Of a DNA stretch of 64,000 bases, positions 5,193-42,260 are shown piece by piece. The position numbers and the translations under genes are program-made. The notes below the pieces were generated by a model that saw only the letters and a list, made by a program, of their open reading frames with translations, did no database searches and had not been told where the DNA came from. Each line of letters begins with the position of its first letter. Position 1 is the stretch's first letter. The stretch is from positions 32,986,001 through 33,050,000 of the forward strand of contig CM119371.1 in NCBI GenBank assembly GCA_051294905.1. The letters are read 5' to 3'. Source of the DNA: Botryllus schlosseri. Its lineage: Eukaryota.

Positions 5193-6129
5193 CTTTTCGA
5201 ATTTTGGTGGGTAAAGTCTTGTTGCGTTAGGTCCATGCCGATTTCACGATGTGTCAGGTTCATGGGTGAAGTATTTTCTACTGCAGTAGTGACGGCGGTA
5301 CCTGCGGAGTCAACTTCGTTCGCGTGTTGATCAGCGACAGCATTGGAAGAGTTGAGTATGGAAACGCCCAGTTTTGATTTTGCAGACTGTGTTACGATTG
5401 CTTCGATGTCGGTTTGTCTCTTTTCCGTCACACACATCAATGCGCTTTTATAACTTCTCCAATAAATAGTAAGAAATCTGATGTGCCTATTGTGATTTGT
5501 TCTGGATTGCTGTTAGATTGTGAAGGAGTTGTCGTGACCTGGGTGTGTCCTAATTGGGACACGAAAGTGTTACTGTCCGGCGTTACGTTAGCGCTGTGTG
5601 TCGGAATGTTCACTTGTGGATGAATATATGTCGGCGAAGGTGCCAAGACTGGGAATTCGTTATACGACCTTACATCAGGAGGTGTCGAGTTTTGCATGAT
5701 CTGTTTTCTGGCTTCCCAATAATTGATTCCTTGATTAGCTGCTAGCGCGTTGATCTGACTTTCCCGTCTGTATCGCTTACAACCACCGTAGCCCGCAGAA
5801 TGAAGTTCACCACAGTTGACGCAGCTAGGTTTATTAGTACAATCTTTGTAATTATGACGATCTCCACACTTGGTACATCTGTGAGCACTTCGGCAAAATT
5901 TCGATCTGTGACCATACCGATTACAATTGAAACATCTTAAAGGCGGCGGGTTATATGTCCTGGTACGAAAGAGCATGAACCCGATGTTGACCACGGTAGG
6001 AAAGATTGTTGACGCGAAACAGATCGAAACGGATCGACTCGGTACTGTATCACCATTCGATTTCTATGAGATCCGACGAACAAATACAACATTTTTGTTA
6101 TACAGTTCCTCTCTAATATCGTTATCGGA
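5189..6129 (-). pseudogene. LINE ORF1 (gag-like), C-terminal part
   Basis: Three zinc knuckles CFNCNRYGHRSKFC, CTKCGDRHNYKDC, CVNCGELHSAGYGGC in ORF 5437-5994; the frame continues upstream to the insertion site at 6129. Confidence 0.9.
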
Positions 6130-6149
6130 AGTAGTATAGTAGATCGGTC

Positions 6150-6425
6150 GTGAGGTGGGTGGGGCTCTTATGGGTGCGGTCGCACGGTGCCGAGAAACCG
6201 GGGGTGGCACGGTGACCCTTATCTCTTATGGCTGCGGTCGCACGGTGCCATTGTGTCTTATGGCGGGGGTCGCATGGTTACCTTTTCGGGTATAGGCTGC
6301 GGCGGCACGGTGCCGTGAAAACTCGCGGTGACACGGTTACCTTTTCAGGTATAGGCGCGGTGACATGGTGACCTTTCAGGTAGAGATGATTTGACTAACG
6401 TTGTGGGTATAGGCTGCGGCGGCAC
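6150..6425. repeat. GC-rich subterminal repeat array of the outer element (mirror at ~32645-32922)
   Basis: Recurrent modules CTTATGG, GGTATAGGC and GCACGGTG(C/A)C. Confidence 0.8.
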
Positions 6426-6679
6426 GGTGTTGAAAATGTATCAGGTATGGTAAATAGTGACGTGAATGGTTCTTAGTTAATGTATACGTCACAAATTATT
6501 ATATATGACCGGTTCGAGTTGATCCTAACGTTTATGGTGACTGCGACAATGATATATCGTTATTCTTATGGACGCTGCGGTGATTCGTACTTTCGGTTAT
6601 AGACTGCGGGTGGCATGTCGTCGTTTCAGGTGTGGAAATAGTTTGCAAAATCTAGGAATTACTCGCATGGTAATGTTTG

Positions 6680-7395
6680 GGTGATTAGTTTACCACAGAG
6701 CCGGCGTAGACGGCGATTCGAATATCAACAATACCAACGGACACAAATTAACACTTCAAATAGGTGTGAAATATTTGTAAAATCCTACGAGCGCTGACAG
6801 GATAACACATCAGACAGCCATCTCTCGTGGTTTGGTGTTACATAGGTTTGGTGTTACAGAGACAGGAATCACGCACAAGTAATATTTTAATAATTAGTTT
6901 GTCGCAGAGCCGGCGTAGACGGTGATTCCAATACCAACAATAGCCGCGTTCACATGCTAACACTCCAAATAGGTGTGAAATAGTTTACAAATCCCCGCAA
7001 TCGCTGACAACAGTATGTCTCGGGCATAGCCATCTTTCGCGACTTGGTGCTACAGGCATCGATCGCTCACGCGGTGAAATTTTCGTAAGCAGTTTGTCAC
7101 AGAACTTGATTTTACGATCAAGTAACGAATATTAGACCGTCAGTGTCTTTAACTTGAATAGCGATAAATTGTCACTTATTTCTGCTCTAACCCTAATCCT
7201 TTGTGAAGTGAACGCTTATTCAAAAAGGTGTGAAATAATTTTCAAATCCCACGACCGCTCACAGGGTAATGCTTCAGACATAGTAATCGCTCATGATTTG
7301 GTGTTACAGACATACCGATCGGTCACAAGGTAATATTTCGGTAATTAGTTTGTCACAGAGCCGTCGCAGACGGTGATTCAAAAACCAACAATTTG
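6680..7395. repeat. Degenerate ~190-210-bp tandem units in the outer left arm
   Basis: Core AGTTT(G/A)(T/C)C(A/G)CAGAGCCG..GACGG.GATTC at ~6687, ~6896, ~7091 (partial) and ~7347; same units in the inner element at ~12033, ~12219, ~12408. Confidence 0.75.
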
Positions 7396-10300
7396 ACACT
7401 TTCTGGTGGTCGCTATATGTTTGGACACTTCGGACCAGGGGTTGACTTTCGTTGCATGATAAGAATCATGAGAATATTCAAGCAATGTGTCAATTTGTCA
7501 ACTTGAAATGAAACTCACTACATAAACCAAGTTGATTCGCATTTGAATGTGTTGATCCGGTACAACTCTAATCCTTTGAGAAATCCATTTACCGCGATCT
7601 GTTGATTCGAACGTAACCTGAATATTACTGACTCCACATTACACGCCGCTGTTTCACACCTATAGAATCAATACCAACTAACTAAACAAGAATCAAGAAT
7701 CGCAAGTATGCACATACAATCATTGTATTTATTTCTGAGAAATCAAACGCTTAACAAAACCACGCAACTTATCATTTGCCAACTCTAGCATTACCAAAAA
7801 ATCCAGGAATTGTTGATTGAAAATCCTTGAGTCCTTATTATAAAAAAATGTTATAGTGTGGCGTCGGAATCCATTCGCAGGATGTACTAAAGGTAAATTC
7901 GGGTAATCCAAAATGAAATATCTCGACTTTGACATAGTCTGAATTGAAATAGATTGACAAACATAACTACCAACTTTCGCCCAGTCACATTTCGAAATTA
8001 TACGCACATTGATTTGAAACATGTAATGAAACATTACAACTCTATTCGCGATCTGGCTTTCCGTTTGCCAAAGAGACATTTTAGCATACTCAAAAGAATT
8101 ATTCTCAACATTAACCGATGTTAAAATCTAGTTTTCACTTACTTGATTATATCACTACAACTCGCAAACTTGAATTAATAATAATTATTCACACGACCGA
8201 TAATTTTTATTCAACTGTAAATAAAGGTCGTTACTATTCTGTAAGACAAAGTATTTACTAATCGGTACATACACGACTTGACATAGTCTATTACATTTTG
8301 AGTATACGAGATTTGAATGTCTGAACAATAACTGAGAATTAAATTATCACAAGTGAATCCGTATATTACAGCGTAAAAGATATTGGAATGTCAGCAACTC
8401 TTTACGGTCATAGTTACAACCACATTAACTAATTTACCCGGCCAGCACGTCATGATCATTCCTGAAATCAACACAAACGCAGTCACTGACTTGAGTTAAC
8501 CACAAAACGACATCAAGTTTTTAATCCCTCTGGAAGCTGACAGATTATTCGAATGCATCGATAGAGAATATTATTGAACTCGTCGATATTGTTACTCCTA
8601 CAAATTATCGCTTACGCCGACTGGGAAAGTTAATATCGAGTGGTAAGAATTGATCACATATTTGTTGAACACAGACACGACAAAGAACAATACCGAGATT
8701 TTATAAACTAGTCATATTACTTTTCACATCTATAAATATCAGAATATAAGTCGTCAAACTTTTTGTTAAATGTAACATTGCACTTTTGGAATCGGATTCG
8801 TTATAGTCATACAAATTGTATTAAACCCAACGCCAAAAAAAGGACTTTTTAGTTCATTGAAATCAAATCATTCGTCTTCGACTTGCGCTTTATTAGATTG
8901 CACACAACAATTAGTTACGAATGAGCTGTAACCAAAGTTAAGAAATCTTTGCGTCCGGCACAGATATGGAAGATGAATATAGCTAACACAATCACGAATC
9001 GACGTTTAGGAGTATTTCACGGATGTAATAAACTTGTTAGTGTCGCCTATCTAAAAGTATGCATGCGTTCGACCTCCAGACCGACTGTTGCGATGTTTAG
9101 GATTCGCTTACAACGACCAAGAGTGAGGTTTTAACATCAACGTCGTTACTGTCAGAATTCGCAACAGAGAATCGAAACATTACACAGTGTGAAAATATCT
9201 CTTTGATATCAAAGCACTATCCCAAGTACACGATTGATACTCAACTCCGTTCACACTTTCTATAGAACGTGCTAAATGTAAAATATCGCGAGGTTGCAAG
9301 ACTTTGATCATTTCAAAAGTAAATTGGAATATGTTTGCTAGATGCATTCAATTCAGCTAGAAATGGCTAGTGCACAACACTCGTAATATCAAGGAAGTAC
9401 TTGCTACACTGTAATTTGCTAAGCGTGTTTTGCATTGTTGGTCGTTTGTAGTATTGATTGAAATTGTTTTTGAACCCTCAAATAATAATTCCCGACATGA
9501 GACCAAGCCGCTGAAAGTCGTTACCATAACAAAGAAACAATTTGTACGATGTTTGGCAAATGTGTCCTATAGTTAGGTGTACTAGAATTATTTGTGTAAC
9601 ACATACACCGACTATGCAATCGAAAATTTCTCCGTTGTCATTCGCTAAAGTAAATGTCATCACAATACTCCGTCGCTAAAAGACGTTACTTGTATGTGAT
9701 TGAATCGCCGGTAATTAACTCGCTAAATCAAACCCTAAGAAATTCCACTCACTCGACGGATTTGAAACAGCGTCGCTTAATCGGTCTATATCGCTTTTCT
9801 AAATGTAAATCATATCCATCCAATCGAAAACAATTTCCCCTCACTTGGTAATGAAAACGTGGTGTAGGTCATTATTCAATATTTTGTTTGTGTCAAATAC
9901 TTTGCAAAAACACACTGTAATGGTTGAGCTTTACATCATCAGGCTGTCATCTGTAAATCTAGCTTACATCCGATTTGTAACTGTATCGTTTACCTAACCG
10001 AGTTGTATGCACAGTTTGATATTTTTTTTGTTATTTAGTAATTGCTGAATATACTACTTCGAAATACTCCGTTGAACGTAATTTCCATCATCGTAATAAT
10101 CGAAGTACATTTGTGTCGAATTCGTACCAACTGACTTTTCTATGACATGATAAATTTTTGACAAGTTATACTTAGAAGGTTGGTTGCATATCACGAACAA
10201 ATAATATACCACTCATATTGATACTGCTACTCCATTGATCGATATTTTCAAAGGAGTCGATTTTCAAACGAGTAAAATATATTACTTGAGTTGTTCCGCT

Positions 10301-11254
10301 TACTATATGTAAATGTAACCTCGTCCATCTTACAACAACGAACAACGATGAAAAGTATGCAATCAAACACAACATGTTTTACTTTTGTAGGACACTAATT
10401 ATTATCTCATTTCATACTAAGTGTATAAGAAAGATATTCATGACACACGAAAATATTCGATATTCCCATGCTACGAACCTGTACAATGATTGGTGACGCT
10501 TTCAAACTGTTTCGATGTCAAAAGAACTTTATTGTCTGAATGGTTGTTCATGTATCTTAATAATCAAATAGTTCAACACAGAACTAGTACGAACAGAAAC
10601 ATCAGAGTTGTTTACACAAAAGTTTGTATGCGTACAGTATGCGAATATCATGTGTAAGTCGAGCACAATTGCGGTATCCATCCAAGTTTAGTTAACACAA
10701 ATTCATTACAACGGAGCCGCGTAAACTTTCGTGAAAGAAAAGCATACCCACTTCCCGAGGGTTCTGTCAATGTCAGAACAATAAACCAGATACTCCAACA
10801 ACAGAGTACATATGTTTTCTAGTCACGGTCCTTACATCTTTCACATAGATCAATCTACTTTGCTACCGAAAAGTGCTGAGTCATCACATGATTGGCCTCA
10901 CAACAAAACAACCAGTAGATGGAGCTGTATTAAAATTTCCTAACCCTTTGCACACCAGTGACAAATTGTTTAGTGTATCGAGTTGTTGTTCAGCGTCAAG
11001 TCTCCATGTTGAAGCATACATTAAAACAGCGCAATCACAATCCAATTAAAACCACGGATATATTTTCATTACCTCACAAACTGCCACACTCAGAAAAATA
11101 AATTTTATTTTCACAAAACATACTTGTAACCAATCGCTTTCATTAAACACACAACACCATAATAGTATTTACTTTCTACAACATCGACATTCCGATGTAG
11201 TCAAGAAATATTTTATTAATCTAAATCATCGACAGTAGTTATATAGATCGCTCG

Positions 11255-11745
11255 TGACGGGCTATGGGCTCTTATGGGCGGGGTGGTGACCTGCCTGAAA
11301 ACCCGGGGTGATGACCCCACCCTTTTAGACCCCCCATGTGGTGGTGACCTGCCATTGTTTCTTATGGGCGCGGTGATGATACCACCCTTTCGGGTATAGG
11401 CTGCGGTGATGATATACCTTGAAAACTCGTGTTGGTGACCCCACCCTTTCGGTATAGGCTGCGGCGATGACCTGCCGTCTCGTATTCGAGGGAATCCCAA
11501 TGTTTACGGTGAATGCGACTTCAATATATCGTTATTCTTATGGCCGCGGCGGTGATTCGTACTTTCGGGTATAGGCTGCGGTCGTGATTCGCCGTGAAAA
11601 CTCGTGGTCGTGACTCGCCTTTTTTGCTATAGGCGGTGGTGGTGATTCGCCTGTCATGTATTCTTACGGGATCTGTGGTGACTCGCCATGTGTTCTTATG
11701 GATGCGGTCGTGAATCACCCTTTCGGGTATAGACATCTCTCGCAC
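11255..11745. repeat. GC-rich subterminal repeat array of the inner element (mirror ~24160-24652)
   Basis: Recurrent modules CTTATGG, CGGGTATAGGCTGCGG, GGTGACCTGCC and GTGA(T/C)TCGCC. Confidence 0.8.
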
Positions 11746-14700
11746 GGTGTTGAATATGTATCAAGTAAATAGTCACGTGAATGAACCTTTGTTAATGTGT
11801 ATATCGTAAATTATTATATATGATGTAGTTTAGTCGTGACAAATGACCGATCGTGTTCTAAGTCTTTCGTCGCTATAGATTTCTACGTACCCTGAATAGT
11901 ACTTTCAGATCGGATTATTCGCACCTTGTATACCGCTGTTTCGCACCTACAGAATAGTCTGCTTTTCACAGTCGTGACTTCACCGCGATAGCGCAATTTT
12001 CGAATCAGTCGCATGGTAATGTTTTGCTATTTAGTTTACCACAGAGCGGTGTAGACGACGATTCGAATACCAACAATACCGCGTTCACATACTAACACCA
12101 CAAAAAGGTGTGAAATATTTCCTACGACCACTCACAAGATAGCACATCAGAATAGCCATCTCTCGTGGTTTGATGTTACAAAGATAGGAATCACGCACAA
12201 GTAATATTTTGGTAATAAGTTTGTCACATAACCGGCGTAGACGGTGATACCAACAATAGCCGCGTTCACAAACTAACACTTCAAAAAGGTGTGAATTAGG
12301 TTGCAAACCCCGCGATCGCTGACAAGATATTGTCTCGGACATAACCATCTTTCGCGACTTGCTGTTACATACATCCCAATCACTCACAAGATACTATTTT
12401 GGTACTTAGTTTGTCACAGAACCGGATTTCACTGGTAAAATTTAATAAGTAACGAATAACAGAGCCGGCGTAGACGGTGATTCGAATACCGACAAATTTT
12501 CACTTATTTCTGCCCCAACCTCTGTGAAGTTGACGCTTATTCAAAAAAGGTGTGAAATAATTGTAAAATCCTACGTCGGTGACGCGATAATGCATCAGAC
12601 ATAGCGATCTAGTTATAGTACGGTGTCGGAATCCATTCGCGAGATGTTCTATAGGTAAATTGAGATAATCCGATACGAAATATTTTGACTTTGGCGTAGT
12701 GTGAATTGAAATAGGATTGACAAACATGACTACCAACTTTCCCACAGTCCCATTTCGATATTATATGCACATTGATTTGAAACAAGTAATGAAACATTGC
12801 AACTCTATTCGCGATCCCGCTTTCCGTTTGTCAAAGAGATATTTTAACCTCTTACCATACTCAAAAGAATTCTTCACAACATTACCAATAAATCTAGTTT
12901 TCACTTACTTGATTATATCACTACAACTCACAAACTTGAATTAATTCATCCTGGCTGTATTCGTATGATCGGTCTTTTTTATTCGATTGTAAAGGTCGTT
13001 ACTATTCTGAAGACAAAGTATTTACTAATCGGTACATATACGATTTGACTTGGACATATTATATTTTGAGTATACGAGATTTGAATGTCCGAACAATAAC
13101 TGAGAATTAATTTATCACAATTAAATCCGTATATTACAGCGTAAAAGATATTGGGGTGTCAGCAACTCTGTACGGTCGTAGTTACAACCACATTAACTAA
13201 TCTACCCAGGCAACTCGTCATGATCATTCCTGAAATCAACACAAGCACGACCACTGACTTGAGTTAACCGCGAAACAGCATCAAGTTTTAAATCCGCTTG
13301 CAGCTGACGGATTATTCGAATACATCGATGGAGAATATTATTGGACTCGTCGGTATTGTTACTTCAACAAATTACACCGACTGCGAAAGTTAATATCGAA
13401 TGGTAAGACTTGATCACATATTTGTTGATCACAGACATGACAAAAAAACATTACCGAGATTTTATAAACTAGTCATATTACTCTACACATCTATCAATAT
13501 CAAAATGCGAGTCATCCAATTTTTCTACTAAAGTAACATTGCACTTTCGGATTCGGTATAGTCATACAAATTGTATTAAATCCAACATCAAAACAAAAGG
13601 ATTTTTTTTTTAGTTTATTGAAATCAAATCATTCGTCTTCGACTTGTGCTTTTCTAGATTACACGCAACAATTCGTTACGAATGAGCTGTAACCAAAGTT
13701 AAGAATTCTTTGTGTCCACAGATATAGAAGATGAATATAGCTAACACAATCACGAATCGACGTTTCAGAGTATTTCACGGATGTAATAAACTTGTTAGTG
13801 TCGCCTATCTAAAAGTATGCATGCGTTCGATTTCCATACCGACTGTTGCGATGTTTAGGATTCGCTTACAATGACCAAGAGTGAGGGTTTAACATCAACG
13901 TCGTTACTGGAGGTATTCACAACAGAGAATCGAAACATTACACAGTGTGAAAATATATCTTTGATATCAAAGCACTATCCCAAGTACACGATTAATACTC
14001 AACTCCGTTCACACTTTCTATAGAACGTGCTAAATGTAAAATATCACGAGGTTGCACTCTAAGACTTTGATCATTACAAAAGTAAATTGAATATGTTTGC
14101 TCGACGCATTCAATTCAACTAGAAATGTCTAGGGCACAACAATCGTAATATTAAGGAAGTACTTGCTACACTGTAATTCACTTAACGTGTTTTGCATTGT
14201 TGTTCATTTGTAGTATTGATTGTTTTTGAACCCCCAAATAATAATTCCCGACATGAAACCAAACCGCTGAAAGTCGTTACCATCACAACGAAACAATGTG
14301 AACGATGTTTGCCAAATGTACCCTATGGTTAGGTGTACTAGAAATATTTGTCTAACACACACACATACACCGACAATGTAATCGAAAATTTTTCCGTTGT
14401 CATTCGCTAAAGTAAATGTCATCACAATACTCTGTCACTAAAGATCTTACTTGTATCTGATTGAATCACCGATAATTAACTCGCTAAATCAAACCATAAG
14501 GAAATTTCACTCACTCATCAGATATGAAACAGCGTCGCTTAATCGGTGTAGATCGTTTTTCTAAATGCAAATCATACCTGACCAACAGAAAACAATTTTC
14601 ACTCACCTTGTAATGAAACCAAGTGGTGGACCTTCGTTCAATATTTTGTTTGTGTCAAATACTTTGCAATAAACACAGTGGAGTAGTCGAGCTTTACATC

Positions 14701-16249
14701 AGCAGACTGTAATCTGTAAATCAAGCTTACATCCGACTTGTAACTGTATCGTTTACCTAACCGAGTTGTATGCACAGTTTGATATCTTTTGTTATTTGGT
14801 AATTGCTGAATATACTACTTCGAAATACTCCCTTGAACGTAATTTCCATCATCGTAATAATCGAAGTACATTTGTGTCGAATTCGTAACAGCCGACTATG
14901 ACATGATAAATTTTTGACAAGTTATGCTTGGAAGATTGGTTGTATATCACGAAAAATAATTACCGCTCATATTGATACTGTTATCCATTGTTCGGTATTT
15001 TCAAACGAGTAAAATTTATTACTTGAGTTACTCCGCTTAATGCAAATGTAAACACAACCGTCTTTCAACATCACAAAGACATCGATACAAAGTATACAAT
15101 CAAACGCAACAAGTTTTACTTTTGTAGGTTGTGTATGGTTATCCTGCATAACTCATTTCTTACCAAAGCCATATGAAATATATTCATGTTACACGAAAAT
15201 ATTCACTCATGCTACAAACCTGTACAATGATTGGTGGTGCTTTCAAACTGTTTCGATACCTCAAGAACTTTATTGTCTGAATGGTTGTTCATGTATCGTA
15301 ATAATCAAGTAGTTCAACACAGAACTAGTATTAACAGAAACACCAGAGTTGTTTACACAAAAGTTTGTATGTGTACAGTATACGAATACCATGTGTAAGT
15401 CCAGCACAATTGTGGTATCCATACGAGTTTAGTTAACACAATTTACGACACCGAGGTCGCGTCATCTTTCGTAAGACAACAAACCAAGGCTTCAGGATAT
15501 GTCCATGTCATAGCAATGAATCGGCTACTCCAACAACAGAGTGCATATGTTTTCTAGTTATGGTGCTTACATCTTACACACAAATCAATTGACTTTGCTA
15601 ACGAAAAGTGGTGAGTCATCATATGGTTATCCTCACTAGTAAAACATACTATCATACAAAACGGTCGTTATAGTTTGCACACCAACGGTACATCGTACAA
15701 GTAACAAGTCTCGAGAATCCAGTTATTCAAAAAGCGTGAAAGTATTTCTACACCAAGTCGTTATGTTGACGAAAGCGTATATTGTAATATCATGATCGAT
15801 TTGCATTCGTTGGTCACAAACTGTCACTACTCTAAATAATTCTTTTTCACTCAAACACAAACGCATACTTGTCACCATTCGTTTTCATCAAGTACGAGTT
15901 CAAGAAACTTACTACGACATGAACTTTTATTTTTATGTTGTGTAAATAGGTAATAATTATTTCAAGTAACACTATATCAACATCATCGCGTTGTGCTAAT
16001 AGATTTACATGTGGTCTTGTGGTTTTCATCGGGACATACAGCACGAACTAACTGTAGACTCCTCTCTGTTGTACAGCTACTCGGTAATCGAAATGCATTA
16101 ACATGTAAACAACGATCTTGTTTCGTCACACCAAAAATATGTTCACTGTCGCGATACTCCGCACAAGACGTGCATAGCCTTTTCACACTCGTAATAGTAT
16201 ACCAACGTCAAGCGATAACGTTTAACAAGACCAACGACACTGAACCCAC

Positions 16250-16770
16250 GACGTTTACCTATGTAAAATTACCACTTTCACTTGCCAGTCCATCGTTTAC
16301 CTGACTAAACATATTATTTTCCTTTGGAGATCTGATGTTTACCCAGAGTAAGAAACCTTTTTCACTTGGAAATCTATTTTTTCCTTGGCTAACAAACCTT
16401 TTTTCACTTGTAAATATATTTTTTCCTTGGCTAACAAACCTTTTTTCACTTGGAAATCTATTTTTTCTCTGGTTAACAAACCTTTTTCCCCGGGTAACAA
16501 ACCTTTTTCCCTGAGCAACAAGCCATTTTCACTTGGTGGTCCGTCGTTTACCTGAGTAAAAATATCATTTTCCTTTGGGGATCTGGCGTTTACCCAGTGT
16601 AACAATACATTTTCGCTTGGAAAAATACTTTTACCTAGAGTAACTAATCATTTTCCCCTGGGTAACAATCCCTTTTCGTCTGGAAACTATCATTTAACTG
16701 AGTACCAATACCGTTTTCACTTGGAAATACATTTTTTCCCTTGGTAACAATACCATTTTCGTTTTGAAAA
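16250..16770. repeat. ~39-41-bp minisatellite in the inner arm (mirror ~19137-19657)
   Basis: Units resembling TTTTCACTTGGAAATCTATTTTTTCCTTGGCTAACAAACC. Confidence 0.85.
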
Positions 16771-17239
16771 CTGACAACCACACCGGTCAATTTGATATTT
16801 TTGTATATTGTTACAACGAACAGTGACGGAAATATACACAGACTACCGGTTTCAGAGTACACCCCATCGGTCGTATCACGTCAATATCATCGGTTAACCA
16901 CATACAATATACTCTTGTACACCGAAATGCACGCTTTGGAAAATTGGACAATAGGCTGCGATAGTTCTGTGATGTCCGGGTTCGTGCTTTAGATTTTCCA
17001 GAGTCAAAATGTCTGAATAAAACACCTCCTCGACGACGGTTGGTATGTGGATAACGGTGTTCGGAAAACGGTTGGATTTATGTCACCCATCGCGATAACA
17101 ATTCCAGGTCGAGTTTTCCTCCCGCATGTTTACTATATTGTGTCTTTATTGGTCAATGTATGTCTCGACATTCAGTTTGAAATCGGAAATGATAAAGTAT
17201 GTAACCGGATCCGGATATCAACTCTGAATCGATAAACCA

Positions 17240-17749
17240 ATGAACAATATTCAAAGTAAACATGTTACACCCTGTGTTTCCACGAAAAAATACCATCCAG
17301 ACATACGTCGCGCTTGTTTGCCCTCATCAGTATACGCCCAAATGGAGATGTGTGACATTGCATGCAATGTGTTGGTATACAAACATCGATCCACAGACAT
17401 TATCATAGCCGGTAGTTTTGATGTAGATCGAATGTCACCTGATAACAATGTCATACCAATAAGCCACATTGCAATGACTCTGGGTCTGCGCTATTACATC
17501 GATATTTCGACACCGTTCACTGATTTACTCGATGGTGTTATCGTGTTGTTACATTGCAAGATAGTCATGACCCTATCTCCCGACAGATCACCCAGACCAA
17601 TTGGATACATCGTCAATATCCGTCGTGTTGTCGACACCGAAATTTTCTGTTGTACAGCGTTTGACCAATGTGAACTATCGAAGTACGGTGCTCGAAATGA
17701 TTGCGATCAGTCTTTCACTAAATCACGGGATGTCGCTACTCCCACATAA
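17240..17749 (+). CDS. Hypothetical 169-aa ORF crossing the arm/spacer boundary of the inner element; possible remnant of the parent's interior
   Basis: ATG start and longest ORF in the element; its first 80 codons are mirrored and truncated in the right arm (18427-18667); no recognisable motif. Confidence 0.3.
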   Translation: MNNIQSKHVTPCVSTKKYHPDIRRACLPSSVYAQMEMCDIACNVLVYKHRSTDIIIAGSFDVDRMSPDNNVIPISHIAMTLGLRYYIDISTPFTDLLDGVIVLLHCKIVMTLSPDRSPRPIGYIVNIRRVVDTEIFCCTAFDQCELSKYGARNDCDQSFTKSRDVATPT

Positions 17750-20700: not shown

Positions 20701-23700
20701 GTGAATATTTTCGTGTAACATGAATATATTTCATATGGCTTTGGTAAGAAATGAGTTATGCAGGATAACCATACACAACCTACAAAAGTAAAACTTGTTG
20801 CGTTTGATTGTATACTTTGTATCGATGTCTTTGTGATGTTGAAAGACGGTTGTGTTTACATTTGCATTAAGCGGAGTAACTCAAGTAATAAATTTTACTC
20901 GTTTGAAAATACCGAACAATGGATAACAGTATCAATATGAGCGGTAATTATTTTTCGTGATATACAACCAATCTTCCAAGCATAACTTGTCAAAAATTTA
21001 TCATGTCATAGTCGGCTGTTACGAATTCGACACAAATGTACTTCGATTATTACGATGATGGAAATTACGTTCAAGGGAGTATTTCGAAGTAGTATATTCA
21101 GCAATTACCAAATAACAAAAGATATCAAACTGTGCATACAACTCGGTTAGGTAAACGATACAGTTACAAGTCGGATGTAAGCTTGATTTACAGATTACAG
21201 TCTGCTGATGTAAAGCTCGACTACTCCACTGTGTTTATTGCAAAGTATTTGACACAAACAAAATATTGAACGAAGGTCCACCACTTGGTTTCATTACAAG
21301 GTGAGTGAAAATTGTTTTCTGTTGGTCAGGTATGATTTGCATTTAGAAAAACGATCTACACCGATTAAGCGACGCTGTTTCATATCTGATGAGTGAGTGA
21401 AATTTCCTTATGGTTTGATTTAGCGAGTTAATTATCGGTGATTCAATCAGATACAAGTAAGATCTTTAGTGACAGAGTATTGTGATGACATTTACTTTAG
21501 CGAATGACAACGGAAAAATTTTCGATTACATTGTCGGTGTATGTGTGTGTGTTAGACAAATATTTCTAGTACACCTAACCATAGGGTACATTTGGCAAAC
21601 ATCGTTCACATTGTTTCGTTGTGATGGTAACGACTTTCAGCGGTTTGGTTTCATGTCGGGAATTATTATTTGGGGGTTCAAAAACAATCAATACTACAAA
21701 TGAACAACAATGCAAAACACGTTAAGTGAATTACAGTGTAGCAAGTACTTCCTTAATATTACGATTGTTGTGCCCTAGACATTTCTAGTTGAATTGAATG
21801 CGTCGAGCAAACATATTCAATTTACTTTTGTAATGATCAAAGTCTTAGAGTGCAACCTCGTGATATTTTACATTTAGCACGTTCTATAGAAAGTGTGAAC
21901 GGAGTTGAGTATTAATCGTGTACTTGGGATAGTGCTTTGATATCAAAGATATATTTTCACACTGTGTAATGTTTCGATTCTCTGTTGTGAATACCTCCAG
22001 TAACGACGTTGATGTTAAACCCTCACTCTTGGTCATTGTAAGCGAATCCTAAACATCGCAACAGTCGGTATGGAAATCGAACGCATGCATACTTTTAGAT
22101 AGGCGACACTAACAAGTTTATTACATCCGTGAAATACTCTGAAACGTCGATTCGTGATTGTGTTAGCTATATTCATCTTCTATATCTGTGGACACAAAGA
22201 ATTCTTAACTTTGGTTACAGCTCATTCGTAACGAATTGTTGCGTGTAATCTAGAAAAGCACAAGTCGAAGACGAATGATTTGATTTCAATAAACTAAAAA
22301 AAAAATCCTTTTGTTTTGATGTTGGATTTAATACAATTTGTATGACTATACCGAATCCGAAAGTGCAATGTTACTTTAGTAGAAAAATTGGATGACTCGC
22401 ATTTTGATATTGATAGATGTGTAGAGTAATATGACTAGTTTATAAAATCTCGGTAATGTTTTTTTGTCATGTCTGTGATCAACAAATATGTGATCAAGTC
22501 TTACCATTCGATATTAACTTTCGCAGTCGGTGTAATTTGTTGAAGTAACAATACCGACGAGTCCAATAATATTCTCCATCGATGTATTCGAATAATCCGT
22601 CAGCTGCAAGCGGATTTAAAACTTGATGCTGTTTCGCGGTTAACTCAAGTCAGTGGTCGTGCTTGTGTTGATTTCAGGAATGATCATGACGAGTTGCCTG
22701 GGTAGATTAGTTAATGTGGTTGTAACTACGACCGTACAGAGTTGCTGACACCCCAATATCTTTTACGCTGTAATATACGGATTTAATTGTGATAAATTAA
22801 TTCTCAGTTATTGTTCGGACATTCAAATCTCGTATACTCAAAATATAATATGTCCAAGTCAAATCGTATATGTACCGATTAGTAAATACTTTGTCTTCAG
22901 AATAGTAACGACCTTTACAATCGAATAAAAAAGACCGATCATACGAATACAGCCAGGATGAATTAATTCAAGTTTGTGAGTTGTAGTGATATAATCAAGT
23001 AAGTGAAAACTAGATTTATTGGTAATGTTGTGAAGAATTCTTTTGAGTATGGTAAGAGGTTAAAATATCTCTTTGACAAACGGAAAGCGGGATCGCGAAT
23101 AGAGTTGCAATGTTTCATTACTTGTTTCAAATCAATGTGCATATAATATCGAAATGGGACTGTGGGAAAGTTGGTAGTCATGTTTGTCAATCCTATTTCA
23201 ATTCACACTACGCCAAAGTCAAAATATTTCGTATCGGATTATCTCAATTTACCTATAGAACATCTCGCGAATGGATTCCGACACCGTACTATAACTAGAT
23301 CGCTATGTCTGATGCATTATCGCGTCACCGACGTAGGATTTTACAATTATTTCACACCTTTTTTGAATAAGCGTCAACTTCACAGAGGTTGGGGCAGAAA
23401 TAAGTGAAAATTTGTCGGTATTCGAATCACCGTCTACGCCGGCTCTGTTATTCGTTACTTATTAAATTTTACCAGTGAAATCCGGTTCTGTGACAAACTA
23501 AGTACCAAAATAGTATCTTGTGAGTGATTGGGATGTATGTAACAGCAAGTCGCGAAAGATGGTTATGTCCGAGACAATATCTTGTCAGCGATCGCGGGGT
23601 TTGCAACCTAATTCACACCTTTTTGAAGTGTTAGTTTGTGAACGCGGCTATTGTTGGTATCACCGTCTACGCCGGTTATGTGACAAACTTATTACCAAAA

Positions 23701-25059
23701 TATTACTTGTGCGTGATTCCTATCTTTGTAACATCAAACCACGAGAGATGGCTATTCTGATGTGCTATCTTGTGAGTGGTCGTAGGAAATATTTCACACC
23801 TTTTTGGGGTGTTAGTATGTGAACGCGGTATTGTTGGTATTCGAATCGTCGTCTACACCGCTCTGTGGTAAACTAAATAGCAAAACATTACCATGCGACT
23901 GATTCGAAAATTGCGCTATCGCGGTGAAGTCACGACTGTGAACAGCAGACTATTCTGTAGGTGCGAAACAGCGGTATACAAGGTGCGAATAATCCGATCT
24001 GAAAGTACTATTCAGGTTACGTAGAAATCAATAGCGACGAAAGACTTAGAACACGATCGGTCATTTGTCACGACTAAACTACATCATATATAATAATTTA
24101 CGATATACACATTAACAAAGGTTCATTCACGTGACTATTTACTTGATACATATTCAACACCGTGCGAGAGATGTCTATACCCGAAAGGGTGATTCACGAC
24201 CGCATCCATAAGAACACATGGCGAGTCACCACAGATCCCGTAAGAATACATGACAGGCGAATCACCACCACCGCCTATAGCAAAAAAGGCGAGTCACGAC
24301 CACGAGTTTTCACGGCGAATCACGACCGCAGCCTATACCCGAAAGTACAAATCACCGCCGCGGCCATAAGAATAACGATATATTGAAGTCGCATTCACCG
24401 TAAACATTGGGATTCCCTCGAATACGAGACGGCAGGTCATCGCCGCAGCCTATACCGAAAGGGTGGGGTCACCAACACGAGTTTTCAAGGTATATCATCA
24501 CCGCAGCCTATACCCGAAAGGGTGGTATCATCACCGCGCCCATAAGAAACAATGGCAGGTCACCACCACATGGGGGGTCTAAAAGGGTGGGGTCATCACC
24601 CCGGGTTTTCAGGCAGGTCACCACCCCGCCCATAAGAGCCCATAGCCCGTCACGAGCGATCTATATAACTACTATCGACTTCTGTTTACGGCGTTAGTGT
24701 GTGCATGTCATACATGTGGGGGTCCGTATTAAAATGGAAACGACACGACTGAATGTAAGGAGGTAGAGGTCTATCGCATAGATTTACATGTGGTCTTCGC
24801 TACGGTTTCAAAAAAACCAATCATCTCTTTTGCATTGATCGATACCGAGCAAGTTAGTTAATGACCATGATTGTGTTTGTCATATTCGAATGATAGGGTT
24901 ACTGTCAAATCTACACACAACAACCTTCTGGCACTCATAATAGCAATTTCATTCTCTCCCTTCGTAATTGTATATTCACGACGACAAGTATATTGTACAA
25001 CTCCACAGCTACGTTTAACAAGACCAACAACACTGAACCCACGATGTTTACCTATGTAA

Positions 25060-25500
25060 AATTACCACTTTCACTTGGCAGTCCATCGTTTACCTGACTA
25101 AACATATCATTTTCCTTTGGAGATCTGACGTTTACCCAGAGTAAGAAACCTTTTTCGCTTGGAAATATATTTTTTCCCTGGGTAACAAACCTTTTTCGCT
25201 TGGAAATATATTTTTTCCCTGGGTAACAAACCTTTTTTCACTTGGAAATATATTTTTTCCCTCAGCAACAAACCATTTTCACTTGGAAATATATGTTTTT
25301 TATCCCTGAGCAACAAACCATTTTCACTTGGAAATATATTTTTCCCTCAACAACAAACCATTTTCACTCGGCGGTCCGTCGTTTACCTTAGTATAAACAT
25401 CATTTTCATTTGGAGATCTGGCGTTTACCCAGTGTAACAATACAGGCTCACTTGGCCATCTAGCTTTTCCTAGAGCGGCAATACCGTTTTCACTTGGAAC
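25060..25500. repeat. ~39-41-bp minisatellite in the outer left arm (mirror ~27540-28025)
   Basis: Units resembling TTTTC(A/G)CTTGGAAATATATTTTTTCCCTGGGTAACAAACC; homologous to 16250-16770. Confidence 0.85.
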
Positions 25501-26113
25501 TCTGACAACCACACCCGGCAATTTGCAATTTGTTGTATTGACGACAGTTGGAAATTGATTACAACGAACAGTGACGAAAATATACACGGACAACCGGTTT
25601 CAGAGTATACCCGCATCGGTCGTATCACATCAATATCATCGGTTAACCATCATACAATATACTCTTGTACACCGAAATGCATGTTTTGGAAATTGGACAA
25701 TAGGCTTCGATAGGTCTGTGATGTCCGGGTTCGTGCTTTGGATTGTCCAGAGTCAAAATGTCTGAATTAAACACCCCTCGGCGACATTGGTAACTGGTTG
25801 GTACACGGATAATGGTGTTCGGAAAACGGATGAATTTATGTTCCCATCGCGCTAACAACCCCGGGTTACTTGTGAGTTTCCTCAGGTCTGTTTACTATAT
25901 TGTGTCTTTACCGGTCACTACATGTCGCTCCAGTCAACTGAAACCGGATGACTATAAGAAAGTATGTGGACCGGATCCGGCTATTCACTCATGAACCAAC
26001 GACCAATATTTAAGTTACAGACCGTGTTTTGTCTCCAAGAAAAATACCAATGCATACACCACATCAAGTACGTCACGATTGTTCACAAGTATTCGCGTAA
26101 ACGAGGTGTACAT

Positions 26114-26732
26114 TAGGGCTGTTCAAAAATAACCTTTTTTCCTTAATCTTGCGGGCTACTTGATTAAATCGTTAGGTTGCCTTAAAAAACGACGCACACC
26201 AAATTTGAATTCATTCCAACCAATATTCGCGGTTTACGTAGAGTTTGAAAATTTTGAATTTGCCCAGAAACGCAAAAAAATTTTTTTTTCAAATTTTTCT
26301 GCCAACCCCATGAAATTGTTGGGCTGTCTTCAAAGACTATGCAAAACAAATTTTACTCAATTCCAAGCCGTAGAAGTGGAGTTATTCCAGTTTTTCTTTG
26401 ATAATTCTGGGATTATCCTTGATCGGGGGATAATCCCAGAATTATCAAAGAAAAACTGGAATAACTCCACTTCTACGGCTTGGAATTGAGTAAAATTTGT
26501 TTTGCATAGTCTTTGAAGACAGCCCAACAATTTCATGGGGTTGGCAGAAAAATTTGAAAAAAAAAATTTTTTGCGTTTCTGGGCAAATTTAAAATTTTCA
26601 AACTCTACGTAAACCGCGAATATTGGTTGGAATGAATTCAAATTTGGTGTGCGTCGTTTTTTAAGGCAACCTAACGATTTAATCAAGTAGCCCGCAAGAT
26701 TAAGGAAAAAAAGTTATTTTTGAACAGCCCTA
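26114..26732. mobile_element. Fully palindromic hAT-type MITE, 619 bp
   Basis: Termini TAGGGCTGTTCAAAAA / TTTTTGAACAGCCCTA; perfect 8-bp TSD GTGTACAT (26106-26113, 26733-26740); self-complementary around ~26423; absent from the mirror arm. Confidence 0.93.
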
Positions 26733-29700
26733 GTGTACATACAATGGGCCGGTGTACAAACATCATGGAAAACAAATTCATGTTCTCAAGTCTCATCATG
26801 TGACGACTCTGTACATTCAATGTGGGCATAGATGAGGAGTTGTATGTATGGAATGTACAGAGTCGTCGCATGATGAGACTTGAGAAAATGAATTTGTTTT
26901 CCATGATGTTTGTACACCGGCCCATTGTATGTACACCTCGTTTACGCGAATACTTGTGAACAATCGTGACGTACTTGATGTGGTGTATGCATTGGTATTT
27001 TTCTTGGAGACAAAACACGGTCTGTAACTTAAATATTGGTCGTTGGTTCATGAGTGAATATCCGGATCCGGTCCACATACTTTCTTATAGTCATCCGGTT
27101 TCAGTTGACTGGAGCGACATGTATTGACCGGTAAAGACACAATATAGTAAACAGACCTGAGGAAACTCACAAGTAACCCGGGGTTGTTAGCGCGATGGGG
27201 AACATAAATTCATCCGTTTTCCGAACACCATTATCCGTGTACAAACCAGTTACCAATGTCGCCGAGGGGTGTTTAATTCAGACATTTTGACTCTGGACAA
27301 TCCAAAGCACGAACCCGGACATCACAGACCTATCGAAGCCTATTGTCCAATTTCCAAAACATGCATTTCGGTGTACAAGAGTATATTGTATGATGGTTAA
27401 CCGATGATATTGATGTGATACGACCGATGCGGGTATACTCTGAAACCGGTTGTCCGTGTATATTTTCGTCACTGTTCGTTGTAATCAATTTCCAACTGTC
27501 GTCAATACAACAAATACCAAATTGCCGGGTGTGGTTGTCAGAGTTCCAAGTGAAAACGGTATTGCCGCTCTAGGAAAAGCTAGATGGCCAAGTGAGCCTG
27601 TATTGTTACACTGGGTAAACGCCAGATCTCCAAATGAAAAGGATGTTTTTACTAAGGAAAACGACGGACCGCCGAGTGAAAATGGTTTGTTGTTGAGGGA
27701 AAAATATATTTCCAAGTGAAAATGGTTTGTTGCTCAGGGATAAAAAAATATATTTCCAAGTGAAAATGGTTTGTTGTTGAGGGAAAAATATATTTCCAAG
27801 TGAAAATGGTTTGTTGCTCAGGGATAAAAAAATATATTTCCAAGTGAAAAAAGGTTTGTTACCCAGGGAAAAAATATATTTCCAAGCGAAAAAGGTTTGT
27901 TACCCAGGGAAAAATATATTTCCAAGCGAAAAAGGTTTCTTACTCTGGGTAAACGTCAGATCTCCAAAGGAAAATGATATGTTTAGTCAGATAAACGATG
28001 GACTGCCAAGTGAAAGTGGTAATTTTACATAGGTAAACATCGTGGGTTCAGTGTTGTTGGTCTTGTTAAACGTAGCTGTGGAGTTGTACAATATACTTGT
28101 CGTCGTGAATATACAATTACGAAGGGAGAGAATGAAATTGCTATTATGAGTGCCAGAAGGTTGTTGTGTGTAGATTTGACAGTAACCCTATCATTCGCAT
28201 ATGACAAACACAATCATGGTCATTAACTAACTTGCTCGGTATTGACCAATGCAAAAGAGATGATTGGTTTTTTGAAACCGTAGCGAAGACCACATGTAAA
28301 TCTATGCGATAGACCTCTACCTCCTTACATTCAGTCGTGTCGTTTCCATTTTAATACGGACCCCCACATGTATGACATGCACACACTAACGCCGTAAACA
28401 GAAGTCGATGATTTAGATTAATAAAATATTTCTTGACTACATCGGAATGTCGATGTTGTAGAAAGTAAATACTATTATGGTGTTGTGTGTTTAATGAAAG
28501 CGATTGGTTACAAGTATGTTTTGGGAAAATAAAATTTATTTTTCTGAATGTGGCAGTTTGTGAAGTAATGAAAATATATCCGTGGTTTTAATTGGATTGT
28601 GATTGCGCTGTTTTAATGTATGCTTCAACATGGAGACTTGACGATGAACAACAACTCGATACACTAAACAATTTGTCACTGGTGTGCAAAGGGTTAGGAA
28701 ATTTTAATACAGCTCCATCTACTGGTTGTTTTGTTGTGAGGCCAATCATGTGATGACTCAGCACTTTTCGGTAGCAAAGTAGATTGATCTATGTGAAAGA
28801 TGTAAGGACCGTGACTAGAAAACATATGTACTCTGTTGTTGGAGTATCTGGTTTATTGTTCTGACATTGACAGAACCCTCGGGAAGTGGGTATGCTTTTC
28901 TTTCACGAAAGTTTACGCGGCTCCGTTGTAATGAATTTGTGTTAACTAAACTTGGATGGATACCGCAATTGTGCTCGACTTACACATGATATTCGCATAC
29001 TGTACGCATACAAACTTTTGTGTAAACAACTCTGATGTTTCTGTTCGTACTAGTTCTGTGTTGAACTATTTGATTATTAAGATACATGAACAACCATTCA
29101 GACAATAAAGTTCTTTTGACATCGAAACAGTTTGAAAGCGTCACCAATCATTGTACAGGTTCGTAGCATGGGAATATCGAATATTTTCGTGTGTCATGAA
29201 TATCTTTCTTATACACTTAGTATGAAATGAGATAATAATTAGTGTCCTACAAAAGTAAAACATGTTGTGTTTGATTGCATACTTTTCATCGTTGTTCGTT
29301 GTTGAAAGATGGACGAGGTTACATTTACATATTGTAAGCGGAACAACTCAAGTAATAAATTTTACTCGTTTGAAAATCGACTCCTTTGAAAATGTCGATC
29401 AATGGAGTAGCAGTATCAATATGAGTGGTATATTATTTGTTCGTGATATGCAACCAACCTTCTAAGTATAACTTGTCAAAAATTTATCATGTCATAGAAA
29501 AGTCGGTTGGTACGAATTCGACACAAATGTACTTCGATTATTACGATGATGGAAATTACGTTCAACGGAGTATTTCGAAGTAGTATATTCAGCAATTACT
29601 AAATAACAAAAAAAATATCAAACTGTGCATACAACTCGGTTAGGTAAACGATACAGTTACAAATCGGATGTAAGCTAGATTTACAGATGACAGCCTGATG

Positions 29701-32700
29701 ATGTAAAGCTCAACCATTACAGTGTGTTTTTGCAAAGTATTTGACACAAACAAAATATTGAATAATGACCTACACCACGTTTTCATTACCAAGTGAGGGG
29801 AAATTGTTTTCGATTGGATGGATATGATTTACATTTAGAAAAGCGATATAGACCGATTAAGCGACGCTGTTTCAAATCCGTCGAGTGAGTGGAATTTCTT
29901 AGGGTTTGATTTAGCGAGTTAATTACCGGCGATTCAATCACATACAAGTAACGTCTTTTAGCGACGGAGTATTGTGATGACATTTACTTTAGCGAATGAC
30001 AACGGAGAAATTTTCGATTGCATAGTCGGTGTATGTGTTACACAAATAATTCTAGTACACCTAACTATAGGACACATTTGCCAAACATCGTACAAATTGT
30101 TTCTTTGTTATGGTAACGACTTTCAGCGGCTTGGTCTCATGTCGGGAATTATTATTTGAGGGTTCAAAAACAATTTCAATCAATACTACAAACGACCAAC
30201 AATGCAAAACACGCTTAGCAAATTACAGTGTAGCAAGTACTTCCTTGATATTACGAGTGTTGTGCACTAGCCATTTCTAGCTGAATTGAATGCATCTAGC
30301 AAACATATTCCAATTTACTTTTGAAATGATCAAAGTCTTGCAACCTCGCGATATTTTACATTTAGCACGTTCTATAGAAAGTGTGAACGGAGTTGAGTAT
30401 CAATCGTGTACTTGGGATAGTGCTTTGATATCAAAGAGATATTTTCACACTGTGTAATGTTTCGATTCTCTGTTGCGAATTCTGACAGTAACGACGTTGA
30501 TGTTAAATCCTCACTCTTGGTCGTTGTAAGCGAATCCTAAACATCGCAACAGTCGGTCTGGAGGTCGAACGCATGCATACTTTTAGATAGGCGACACTAA
30601 CAAGTTTATTACATCCGTGAAATACTCTGAAACGTCGATTCGTGATTGTGTTAGCTATATTCATCTTCCATATCTGTGCCGGACGCAAAGATTTCTTAAC
30701 TTTGGTTACAGCTCATTCGTAACTAATTGTTGTGTGCAATCTAATAAAGCGCAAGTCGAAGACGAATGATTTGATTTCAATGAACTAAAAAGTCCTTTTT
30801 TTGGCGTTGGGTTTAATACAATTTGTATGACTATAACGAATCCGATTCCAAAAGTGCAATGTTACATTTAACAAAAAGTTTGACGACTTATATTCTGATA
30901 TTTATAGATGTGAAAAGTAATATGACTAGTTTATAAAATCTCGGTATTGTTCTTTGTCGTGTCTGTGTTCAACAAATATGTGATCAATTCTTACCACTCG
31001 ATATTAACTTTCCCAGTCGGCGTAAGCGATAATTTGTAGGAGTAACAATATCGACGAGTTCAATAATATTCTCTATCGATGCATTCGAATAATCTGTCAG
31101 CTTCCAGAGGGATTAAAAATTTGATGTCGTTTTGTGGTTAACTCAAGTCAGTGACTGCGTTTGTGTTGATTTCAGGAATGATCATGACGTGCTGGCCGGG
31201 TAAATTAGTTAATGTGGTTGTAACTATGACCGTAAAGAGTTGCTGACATTCCAATATCTTTTACGCTGTAATATACGGATTCACTTGTGATAATTTAATT
31301 CTCAGTTATTGTTCAGACATTCAAATCTCGTATACTCAAAATGTAATAGACTATGTCAAGTCGTGTATGTACCGATTAGTAAATACTTTGTCTTACAGAA
31401 TAGTAACGACCTTTATTTACAGTTGAATAAAAATTATCGGTCGTGTGAATAATTATTATTAATTCAAGTTTGCGAGTTGTAGTGATATAATCAAGTAAGT
31501 GAAAACTAGATTTTAACATCGGTTAATGTTGAGAATAATTCTTTTGAGTATGCTAAAATGTCTCTTTGGCAAACGGAAAGCCAGATCACGAATAGAGTTG
31601 TAATGTTTCATTACATGTTTCAAATCAATGTGCGTATAATTTCGAAATGTGACTGGGCGAAAGTTGGTAGTTATGTTTGTCAATCTATTTCAATTCAGAC
31701 TATGTCAAAGTCGAGATATTTCATTTTGGATTACCCGAATTTACCTTTAGTACATCCTGCGAATGGATTCCGACGCCACACTATAACATTTTTTTATAAT
31801 AAGGACTCAACGATTTTCAATCAACAATTCCTGGATTTTTTGGTAATGCTAGAGTTGGCAAATGATAAGTTGCGTGGTTTTGTTAAGCGTTTGATTTCTC
31901 AGAAATAAATACAATGATTGTATGTGCATACTTGCGATTCTTGATTCTTGTTTAGTTAGTTGGTATTGATTCTATAGGTGTGAAACAGCGACAAACTGCT
32001 TACGAAAATTTCACCGCGTGAGCGATCGATGCCTGTAGCACCAAGTCGCGAAAGATGGCTATGCCCGAGACATACTGTTGTCAGCGATTGCGGGGATTTG
32101 TAAACTATTTCACACCTATTTGGAGTGTTAGCATGTGAACGCGGCTATTGTTGGTATTGGAATCACCGTCTACGCCGGCTCTGCGACAAACTAATTATTA
32201 AAATATTACTTGTGCGTGATTCCTGTCTCTGTAACACCAAACCACGAGAGATGGCTGTCTGATGTGTTATCCTGTCAGCGCTCGTAGGATTTTACAAATA
32301 TTTCACACCTATTTGAAGTGTTAATTTGTGTCCGTTGGTATTGTTGATATTCGAATCGCCGTCTACGCCGGCTCTGTGGTAAACTAATCACCCAAACATT
32401 ACCATGCGAGTAATTCCTAGATTTTGCAAACTATTTTCACACCTGAAACGACGACATGCCACCCGCAGTCTATAACCGAAAGTACGAATCACCGCAGCGT
32501 CCATAAGAATAACGATATATCATTGTCGCACTCACCATAAACGTTAGGATCAACTCGAACCGGTCATATATAATAATTTGTGACGTATACATTAACTAAG
32601 AACCATTCACGTCACTATTTACCATACCTGATACATTTTCAACACCGTGCCGCCGCAGCCTATACCCACAACGTTAGTCAAATCATCTCTACCTGAAAGG

Positions 32701-32942
32701 TCACCATGTCACCGCGCCTATACCTGAAAAGGTAACCGTGTCACCACGAGTTTTCACGGCACCGTGCCGCCGCAGCCTATACCCGAAAAGGTAACCATGC
32801 GACCCCCGCCATAAGACACAATGGCACCGTGCGACCGCAGCCATAAGAGATAAGGGTCACCGTGCCACCCCCGGTTTCTCGGCACCGTGCGACCGCACCC
32901 ATAAGAGCCCCACCCACCTCACGACCGATCTACTATACTACT

Positions 32943-33318
32943 ATCGGGTAAGTCTAGAGGTACATCAGTTATGACAGCACGTACTTCTGGGGTTTTCGTC
33001 TTGTATAATTCAGTTTTGACTTCTATTGGTTTTGCCGCAGTGCCAAGGTTATTGCAAGCCAAAAGTCTTGTCACCTGGTCGTAGTTGTTACATAATACGC
33101 TCAAATCTCCGGATGGAAGTATCCTTACCTCCTTATATGCACCACCTAGTAGCTTTTGTTGACAAGAATAGGATTATAAGAGCGAAGCTGTTTAGTCAAG
33201 CCTGTCACTATGACCGATTGATTTCCACCGACCGAATTACTAGATGCAGCCTCTTTAGAAGCAGGACCAGAGAGTTCCTCTTCAGCGGAGCGCATCTGCG
33301 CCTCTTTTTTCCTGACAT
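32943..33318 (-). pseudogene. LINE ORF1, N-terminal part
   Basis: Reads ...VLCNNYDQVTRLLACNNLG...EVRAVITDVPLDLPD and continues as DNDIREELY at 6129 downward; candidate ATG at 33318-33316; frameshifts present. Confidence 0.8.
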
Positions 33319-42134: not shown

Positions 42135-42260
42135 TTCGCCAGCCTTACTAGCTGACGTGATATCGCCCGCCGACTTAAACCCGACGTGCGCTAGCCGACT
42201 CGAATCCTTTGCTCAGCTGTATTTGAAATGTCTTCTCGACGACGACGATGACAACAATCG

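Follow-up and report, generated by a model that had tools for sequence, protein, structure and literature searches.

Nested giant palindromes with Polinton ends in the genome of Botryllus schlosseri: probable members of a helper-dependent, fold-back-replicating satellite lineage

Two giant palindromes, elements A and B, one nested in the other, are located in a 64,000-nt stretch of the Botryllus schlosseri genome (assembly GCA_051294905.1, contig CM119371.1, positions 32,986,001 to 33,050,000 of the forward strand; this whole stretch is referred to below as the window). Both elements are probably members of an abundant lineage of Polinton satellites, dependent on a helper and replicating by fold-back, rather than a freshly formed defective genome. 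A copy of such a satellite can be described as two mirror arms of ~6.3 kb, each consisting of an outer Polinton end and a non-coding interior, and mostly enclosing a centre of ~0.9–1 kb that encodes an orphan protein of 91 amino acids.

An inverted-repeat scan and a self-BLAST comparison of the window detected these two nested palindromes (Table 1). Element A occupies 26,813 bp in total, and the subtraction of B with its target-site duplication (TSD; 13,446 bp) and of a MITE (miniature inverted-repeat transposable element) with its own TSD (627 bp) leaves 12,740 bp, composed of a left arm of 6,616 bp, a 32-nt loop and a right arm of 6,092 bp. The same length around the same loop had been given in a preliminary description of this DNA, made from the sequence alone, and its delimitation of A by AGTAGT...ACTACT ends and a 6-bp TSD was likewise borne out: A starts with AGTAGTATAGTAGATCGG and finishes with CCGATCTACTATACTACT, which are mutual reverse complements, and its flanking duplication matches at five of six positions. 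However, the segment 7099–7646, a supposed insert, belongs to the original arm; because the arm of B carries a homologue of it, the right arm of A is considered to have suffered a 548-bp deletion at position 31990, and the segment is therefore unpaired. Subterminal repeats of 32 bp lie at 6199–6282. The MITE is present in the left arm only, flanked by the 8-bp TSD GTGTACAT (26106–26113 and 26733–26740), and going by the length of this duplication we take it to be hAT-like.

Table 1 Coordinates of elements A and B and of their parts (positions are those of the window)
Feature	Position	Strand	Details
Left TSD of A	6124–6129		ATCGGA
Element A	6130–32942		Palindromic non-autonomous Polinton derivative; no centre, no open reading frame (ORF)
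Terminal stretch of A like the terminal inverted repeats (TIRs) of gene-bearing copies	6130–6508	+	88% to C15; mirror at 32564–32942
Ancestral arm stretch, left arm of A only	7099–7646	+	B 12002–12604 aligns over it
Left TSD of B	11228–11233		ATCGAC, perfect; right copy 24674–24679
Element B	11234–24673		13,440 bp, nested in left arm of A; ends AGTAGTTATATAGATCG...CGATCTATATAACTACT
Left arm of B	11234–17486	+	6,253 bp; 41–42-bp tandem repeats at 16317–16769
Unique centre of B	17487–18420	+	934 bp
Orphan ORF in centre of B	18029–18304	+	91 amino acids (18029–18301, from first Met) and stop
Right arm of B	18421–24673	−	Reverse complement of left arm
Left arm of A, resumed after B	24680–26113	+	41-bp tandem repeats at 25131–25368
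Nested foldback MITE	26114–26732		619 bp; 312-nt arms, 9-nt spacer; ends TAGGGCTG...CAGCCCTA
Axis loop of A	26819–26850		32 nt
Right arm of A	26851–32942	−	6,092 bp, free of insertions
Right TSD of A	32943–32948		ATCGGG

The idea of ~13-kb elements, each forming one giant gene-less hairpin, thus holds for A and fails for B on both counts, as the arms of B, 6,253 bp each, enclose a unique centre of 934 bp with a conserved ORF, which is also the structure of most members of the family. In this respect A is the exception. The first 17 nt of its loop coincide with the start of the ~1-kb centre of its closest relative, a copy designated C11a. A 121-bp probe laid over the loop was scored at 40 places, among which A itself gave the sole full-length match, and the relatives matched only up to base 61 of the probe, as inverted pairs ~1 kb apart. 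Because the full-length match is unique to A among these places, its complete palindromy is best regarded as a private loss of the centre, and a single additional fold-back or deletion may have produced A as a centre-less derivative.

Elements A and B are true insertions. When 300 bp of each flank of A were searched against the whole genome, both flanks were found together at eight places, and at six of these they abut on one strand with an exact 6-bp overlap and represent empty sites, whereas the remaining two places are rearranged. The empty site of B was found in a paralogous A-like copy (L053+L054), where the flanks are contiguous, again with a 6-bp overlap. The host of A is a non-LTR (long terminal repeat) retrotransposon (464–6063 on the minus strand, and 33020–33481), which carries a zinc knuckle, an AP endonuclease, a reverse transcriptase and RNase H, and of which at least six paralogues have the intact site. 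It is hardly credible that the palindromes are chimeric fold-backs created during assembly: although the short contigs of independent DNA runs bridged no junction, as this explanation would allow, eight palindromic copies with distinct TSDs are distributed over six contigs, and nested insertions, arm-specific mutations and the empty-site paralogues all speak against it.

The family was sampled in the 495.5-Mb assembly (219 contigs) with the terminal 371 bp of A as a probe. From 2,069 first-look candidates the top 40 were scored and gave 44 matches, many of which form plus/minus pairs at a spacing of 13–18 kb. Ten end pairs, 13–17.5 kb apart, were picked from those best 40, with three longer pairs excluded, and the sorting of copies into fold-back and gene-bearing ones, which had been proposed in the preliminary description, yielded six palindromic copies (C11a, C11b, C9, C2, C3 and C7) and four gene-bearing, i.e., autonomous, ones (C15, C1a, C8 and C1b). 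In the six palindromic copies the architecture recurs, each time at another site and with another TSD, so it is not due to chance. Their arms are 6.1–6.7 kb long, except in C7, for which 4.4-kb arms were obtained at the stringency used, and their overall length is 13.1–14.6 kb, against 15.1–16.5 kb for the gene-bearing copies, which have TIRs of just 549–1,115 bp and long ORFs. Two of ~12 single-arm matches (L051–L054) were examined in addition; one was a fragmented copy and the other, S_C12, a truncated palindromic copy with an arm identity of 99.0–99.1%, so neither was a non-palindromic relative. The copy number can be stated as a lower bound of at least 150 copies with the centre ORF, and first-look candidates, which are unverified, number roughly 1,000–2,500.

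All 12 elements compared (A, B and the ten fetched copies) start with AGTAG and finish with ACTACT. Polinton TIRs open with 5′-AG and close with CT-3′, and this motif was found in every one of them. The TSD is a perfect 6 bp in 11 of the 12 and, with two further end pairs, in 13 of 14, A being the one with five matching positions; its length is 6 bp in all 14, as expected in the preliminary description. Variants of the terminal sequence are common to palindromic and gene-bearing copies, since B, C2 and C3 share theirs with C1b, and C9 shares its own with C1a. Among 23 target 6-mers (those of the 14 elements and of nine single termini), CG occupies positions 3–4 in 13 cases, such as TACGAA, CACGTC, CTCGAG and AACGTT, with the boundary of the few single termini showing AGTAGTAGT placed by eye and uncertain by 3 nt; such CG-centred targets suggest a preference of the integrase.

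The identity of the gene-bearing partners was established with Pfam. All four of them carry a protein-primed polymerase, pPolB (PF03175), and an rve integrase with a chromodomain. C15 encodes the pPolB, of the type-B organellar/viral kind, in a frame of 1,242 amino acids (31.7 bits, the cut-off being 25.8, E 1e-7) and an integrase with an rve domain (PF00665, E 2.6e-16) and a chromodomain (PF00385, E 2.5e-8); its match to an NTPase is weak (RNA_helicase, 22.0 bits against a cut-off of 21.5, with Pox_A32 under the cut-off), and capsid genes were not identified by Pfam in this copy. The Polinton/Maverick nature of the ends, as claimed before, is therefore upheld, in that gene-bearing Polintons of the same genome share both the termini and the TSD length. 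The genome gave 37 long pPolB matches from 433 first-look candidates, and because 27 of the 37 are free of stops, helpers are plausible. The genomic polymerases fall into two length classes, ~1,212–1,242 and 1,295–1,300 amino acids, and the longer class aligns with the query only from residue ~102 on, so its N-terminal part is different. Another frame of 214–217 amino acids, without a Pfam match, is located just inside one end in all four gene-bearing copies (L037:1188–1838 on the minus strand and its equivalents), with 88–97% identity. C1a (L043/L044) is itself inserted in end sequence of the Polinton family, as its flanks correspond to positions 1449–1949 and 1943–2402 of C3 with a 7-base overlap; together with B within A, this makes nesting inside the family seem common.

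The relationship to these Polintons is close at the ends of the arms. The first 370–1,500 bp are 82–98% identical to the TIRs of copies bearing pPolB and rve genes, which makes it very improbable that the palindromes are foldback transposons of another superfamily (FB/MuDR or P/Galileo-like) merely resembling Polintons at their ends. The very long TIRs, the presence of some internal tandem repeats and the lack of any Polinton gene inside would fit such an origin, but the TSD length is constant at 6 bp in all 14 elements, and no transposase was found by Pfam in the frames of A or B.

Farther inward, the picture is different. At both the DNA and the protein level, the part of the arm that resembles the four autonomous copies is confined to the outer 0.4–2 kb (0.4–1 kb, or 1.5 kb in C3), and comparison of the arms with these copies by blastx and tblastx gave nothing convincing beyond ~2 kb from the ends. 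Individual tblastx matches within the arms were rejected as coding evidence, being high-scoring segment pairs of 16–48 amino acids with summed E-values borrowed from the terminal matches. C2 has 336 bp at 81% identity to sequence just inside one C15 TIR, and A, C11a and C7 have 160–283 bp at 70–74% to such sequence, which for A is weak evidence. The arm interior, 4–5 kb, is common to the palindromic copies at 76–88% identity, across 41–100% of the arm, and is absent from all four autonomous ones; arrays of 41–42-bp tandem repeats sit toward its inner end. In A and B, this interior contains no stop-to-stop frame longer than 132 amino acids, except for one that enters the centre of B, and none of the 59 frames of at least 60 amino acids taken from the arm and centre of B and the right arm of A matched Pfam above its cut-off. 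So, as stated at the outset of this work, pPolB, rve integrase, capsid, packaging ATPase and protease were not found by Pfam in either element.

These comparisons also bear on the proposal of the preliminary description that a snap-back copy of a Polinton genome had been made by template switching on one end of a parent. Its premise of two copies of the same parental end can be seen directly in C3 (see below), and the varied turn-around junctions of A, C2 and C7 would agree with it as well. At the same time, it is improbable that each copy is such a fresh defective genome, derived from a gene-bearing Polinton with no lineage of its own, because interiors of ~4–5 kb common to the palindromic copies are missing from the four autonomous copies, as are the centre and ORF present in at least 150 copies. 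A simple snap-back copy would not account for an arm of ~6.3 kb of which only the outer 0.4–2 kb is Polinton-like, and the notion of an entirely palindromic family has to give way to an architecture inherited across a large, diverged family, most members of which keep a centre with its own gene.

This centre, ~930 bp in length, is 88–99% conserved among B, C11b, C9, C3 and part of C2. The longest frame wholly within the left arm of B has no more than 115 amino acids, and a stop-to-stop frame of 173 amino acids (17228–17746), which straddles the boundary between arm and centre, has no Pfam match. The 91-amino-acid ORF is open in all six copies compared, including the divergent C11a, with 55% amino acid identity, and is evidently under purifying selection: dN/dS is 0.11–0.56 in all 15 pairs of the six copies and 0.27–0.40 against C11a, where dS is ~1. 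In the genome, 143 of 150 scored matches are free of stops and seven contain a stop; these 150 are the top-scoring set out of 1,182 first-look candidates and are skewed to good copies. The protein itself is an orphan. No Pfam family matches it. Two close relatives emerged when 5.8 billion proteins were searched by word index, and a profile compared with 1.84 billion representatives recovered its own cluster only, so that database relatives number just 2–3. Its atlas feature matches (0.84–0.86) are at chance level, and AlphaFold2 gave a pLDDT of 47 with five sequences. In the four autonomous copies, tblastn with this ORF found nothing under an E-value of 9.9.

The two arms of each copy are nearly identical. 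The number of differences was 33 in 6,048 aligned bases for A, 11 in 6,253 bp without gaps for B, 1/6,506 for C11a, 8/6,105 for C11b, 3/6,445 for C9, 2/6,725 for C2, 0/6,395 for C3 and 4/4,366 for C7, so that arm divergence is 0–0.55% inside one copy against 12–24% between copies. A merely cut-and-pasted ancient palindrome would gather arm differences in each lineage, and some process must therefore re-equalise the arms. Arm divergence grows after insertion, with 0.55% in the host A and 0.18% in the guest B, and by this measure B is the younger of the two. The re-equalising seems to accompany transposition and not to depend on the chromosomal locus, because A is three times more arm-diverged than its guest and keeps one-armed insertions and a one-armed deletion; their absence from the opposite arm speaks against strong conversion in place.

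Two recombinant copies are instructive. In C3, a stretch of 1,521 bp occurs on each of the two arms and matches one end of the autonomous C1b at 97.6% identity; it extends 758 bp beyond the 763-bp TIR of C1b and includes the intact 214-amino-acid frame, again in both arms. In C2, the inner 1.07 kb is 99–100% identical to B, the outer arms being at ~80–85%, and the arms extend ~470–500 bp into sequence that is unique centre in B. The recombinant ends and the shifted arm/centre junctions are found on both arms of the copy concerned. As each such change must have occurred once and yet is present twice, the simplest account is that the second arm was copied from the first by fold-back. The turn-around junctions are distinct in A, C2 and C7. 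Like A, C7 lacks a centre; its junction is asymmetric, and it contains 2.3 kb of inserted foreign sequence.

On these grounds, it is rather unlikely that the palindromes are ordinary non-autonomous elements with giant TIRs, served by the Polinton integrase alone, whose arms are matched in situ through intrachromosomal gene conversion of the kind seen in large genomic palindromes. Arm identities of 99.4–100% in all eight palindromic copies would suit this explanation, and so would an arm/centre junction inherited across B, C11b, C9 and C3 and the fact that no replication intermediate was seen. However, conversion in place is difficult to reconcile with the threefold higher arm divergence of the older host A, with its 13.4-kb insertion, 0.6-kb insertion and 548-bp deletion, each of which affects one arm only, and with the arm identity of the truncated S_C12, and it leaves unexplained the 1.5-kb autonomous end on both arms of C3.

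Under the satellite reading, which we prefer, the integrase of a helper Polinton would insert the satellites and its protein-primed polymerase would copy them. A single strand with one arm and the centre would fold back at every round, and the second arm would be synthesised or corrected against the first, for which the adenovirus panhandle or snap-back defective genomes may serve as a model. Replication would next start from the paired termini, which serve as its origin, and the resulting duplex, identical at its two ends, would be ready to integrate. Fold-back copying of this kind is likely given protein-primed, strand-displacing replication.

Several points weigh against this scheme. Few copies were sampled, and their selection tilts the set to young, intact ones; in addition, ~4–5 kb of each ~6.3-kb arm is without detectable Polinton ancestry. 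B, C11b, C9 and C3 have one common arm/centre junction, which implies that the palindrome is inherited and not re-made at random points. No free or replicating form has been observed; contigs of independent DNA runs (X1, X4 and X7) were 65–114 bases long over the repeat, with none bridging a junction, and ~6% of RNA run X23 gave 30 reads on the arms and none on 17553–18362, which is too thin to count either way. Finally, mismatch repair of a hairpin could give identical arms without copy-back synthesis; such correction could add to fold-back copying, but would not easily transfer a heterologous end of 1.5 kb.

A more specific version of the satellite reading, possible though on balance not probable, would see in these elements a self-perpetuating lineage of satellites of polintoviruses endogenous to animals, in which fold-back of the whole molecule remakes one arm from the other, the selected 91-amino-acid gene of the satellite exploits the helper, and packaging holds the length of ~13–14 kb near the size of the helper genome.

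Comparison with known systems delimits what is particular to these elements. With the gene-bearing Polinton/Maverick copies they share the AGTAGT...ACTACT termini, the 6-bp TSD, the outer 0.4–2 kb and a similar length, but they lack the pPolB, integrase, ATPase and capsid genes and carry their own orphan gene in the centre. Their TIRs of 4.4–6.7 kb (mostly ~6.3) are far outside the usual range, for which a published account gives 100–1,500 bp, along with a TSD of 5–8 bp (PMC10748475). Snap-back and copy-back defective viral genomes, as defined in another source (PMC13506859), offer a close parallel. Here as there, two copies of one genome end form a palindrome of nearly whole length, the replication proteins would come from a helper (a dependence that the lack of genes suggests in the present case) and the parent is protein-primed. 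Unlike such genomes, the satellites sit in the host genome, pass down by inheritance and have diversified into hundreds of copies; parental sequence makes up the smaller part of their arm, and they carry a selected gene. Daniell and co-workers reportedly described defective adenovirus DNA with long inverted repeats in the 1970s.

Foldback transposons, such as Drosophila FB and Galileo, are likewise built mostly of inverted repeats with internal tandem subrepeats and have many non-coding copies. They produce a TSD of 9 bp (MuDR/FB) or 7–8 bp (P superfamily), whereas the satellites have a TSD of 6 bp, Polinton ends and arms several times longer, which consist of unique sequence with only short repeat arrays. 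Adenovirus panhandle repair and self-complementary dimeric parvovirus genomes likewise involve an intrastrand pairing step in which one end serves to make or correct the other; those were laboratory observations on viruses, whereas for the satellites the step is deduced from the pattern of arm identity. Full-text literature searches yielded no description of palindromic or snap-back Polintons. Terminal palindromes of 52 nt are described for protist virophages in a preprint of 2026, which also sets out the Kapitonov–Jurka model of excision and TIR annealing.

Elsewhere in the window, an NLR-type gene or exon stands beside the insertion, in the form of a 495-amino-acid frame (34014–35501, plus strand) with NACHT and NOD2 winged-helix (NOD2_WH) domains. 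A DUF7041 frame is located at 42252–43187, a fragment of the rve integrase of another mobile element at 46536–47057, and a MITE-like inverted repeat with 159-nt arms and an 84-nt spacer at 61893–62294. An Rfam scan of the whole 64-kb window gave no matches.

To our knowledge, the replication of Polintons/Mavericks has been modelled only and never observed. A large family whose 6-kb arms are re-made in each round would speak, from the genome, for a fold-back step of a single strand comparable to the adenovirus panhandle, and its many natural junctions and recombinants offer material for testing this model. If the more specific version of the satellite reading is true, these would be the first satellite described for Polintons, and Polinton replication would for the first time be documented, by hundreds of dated copies. 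For the genome of the host, the family adds up to megabases of long palindromes that are nearly perfect and could be fragile sites or give rise to hairpin RNA against Polinton ends, and the conserved orphan gene, carried by an element that parasitises a virus-like one, may lead to a function as yet unknown.

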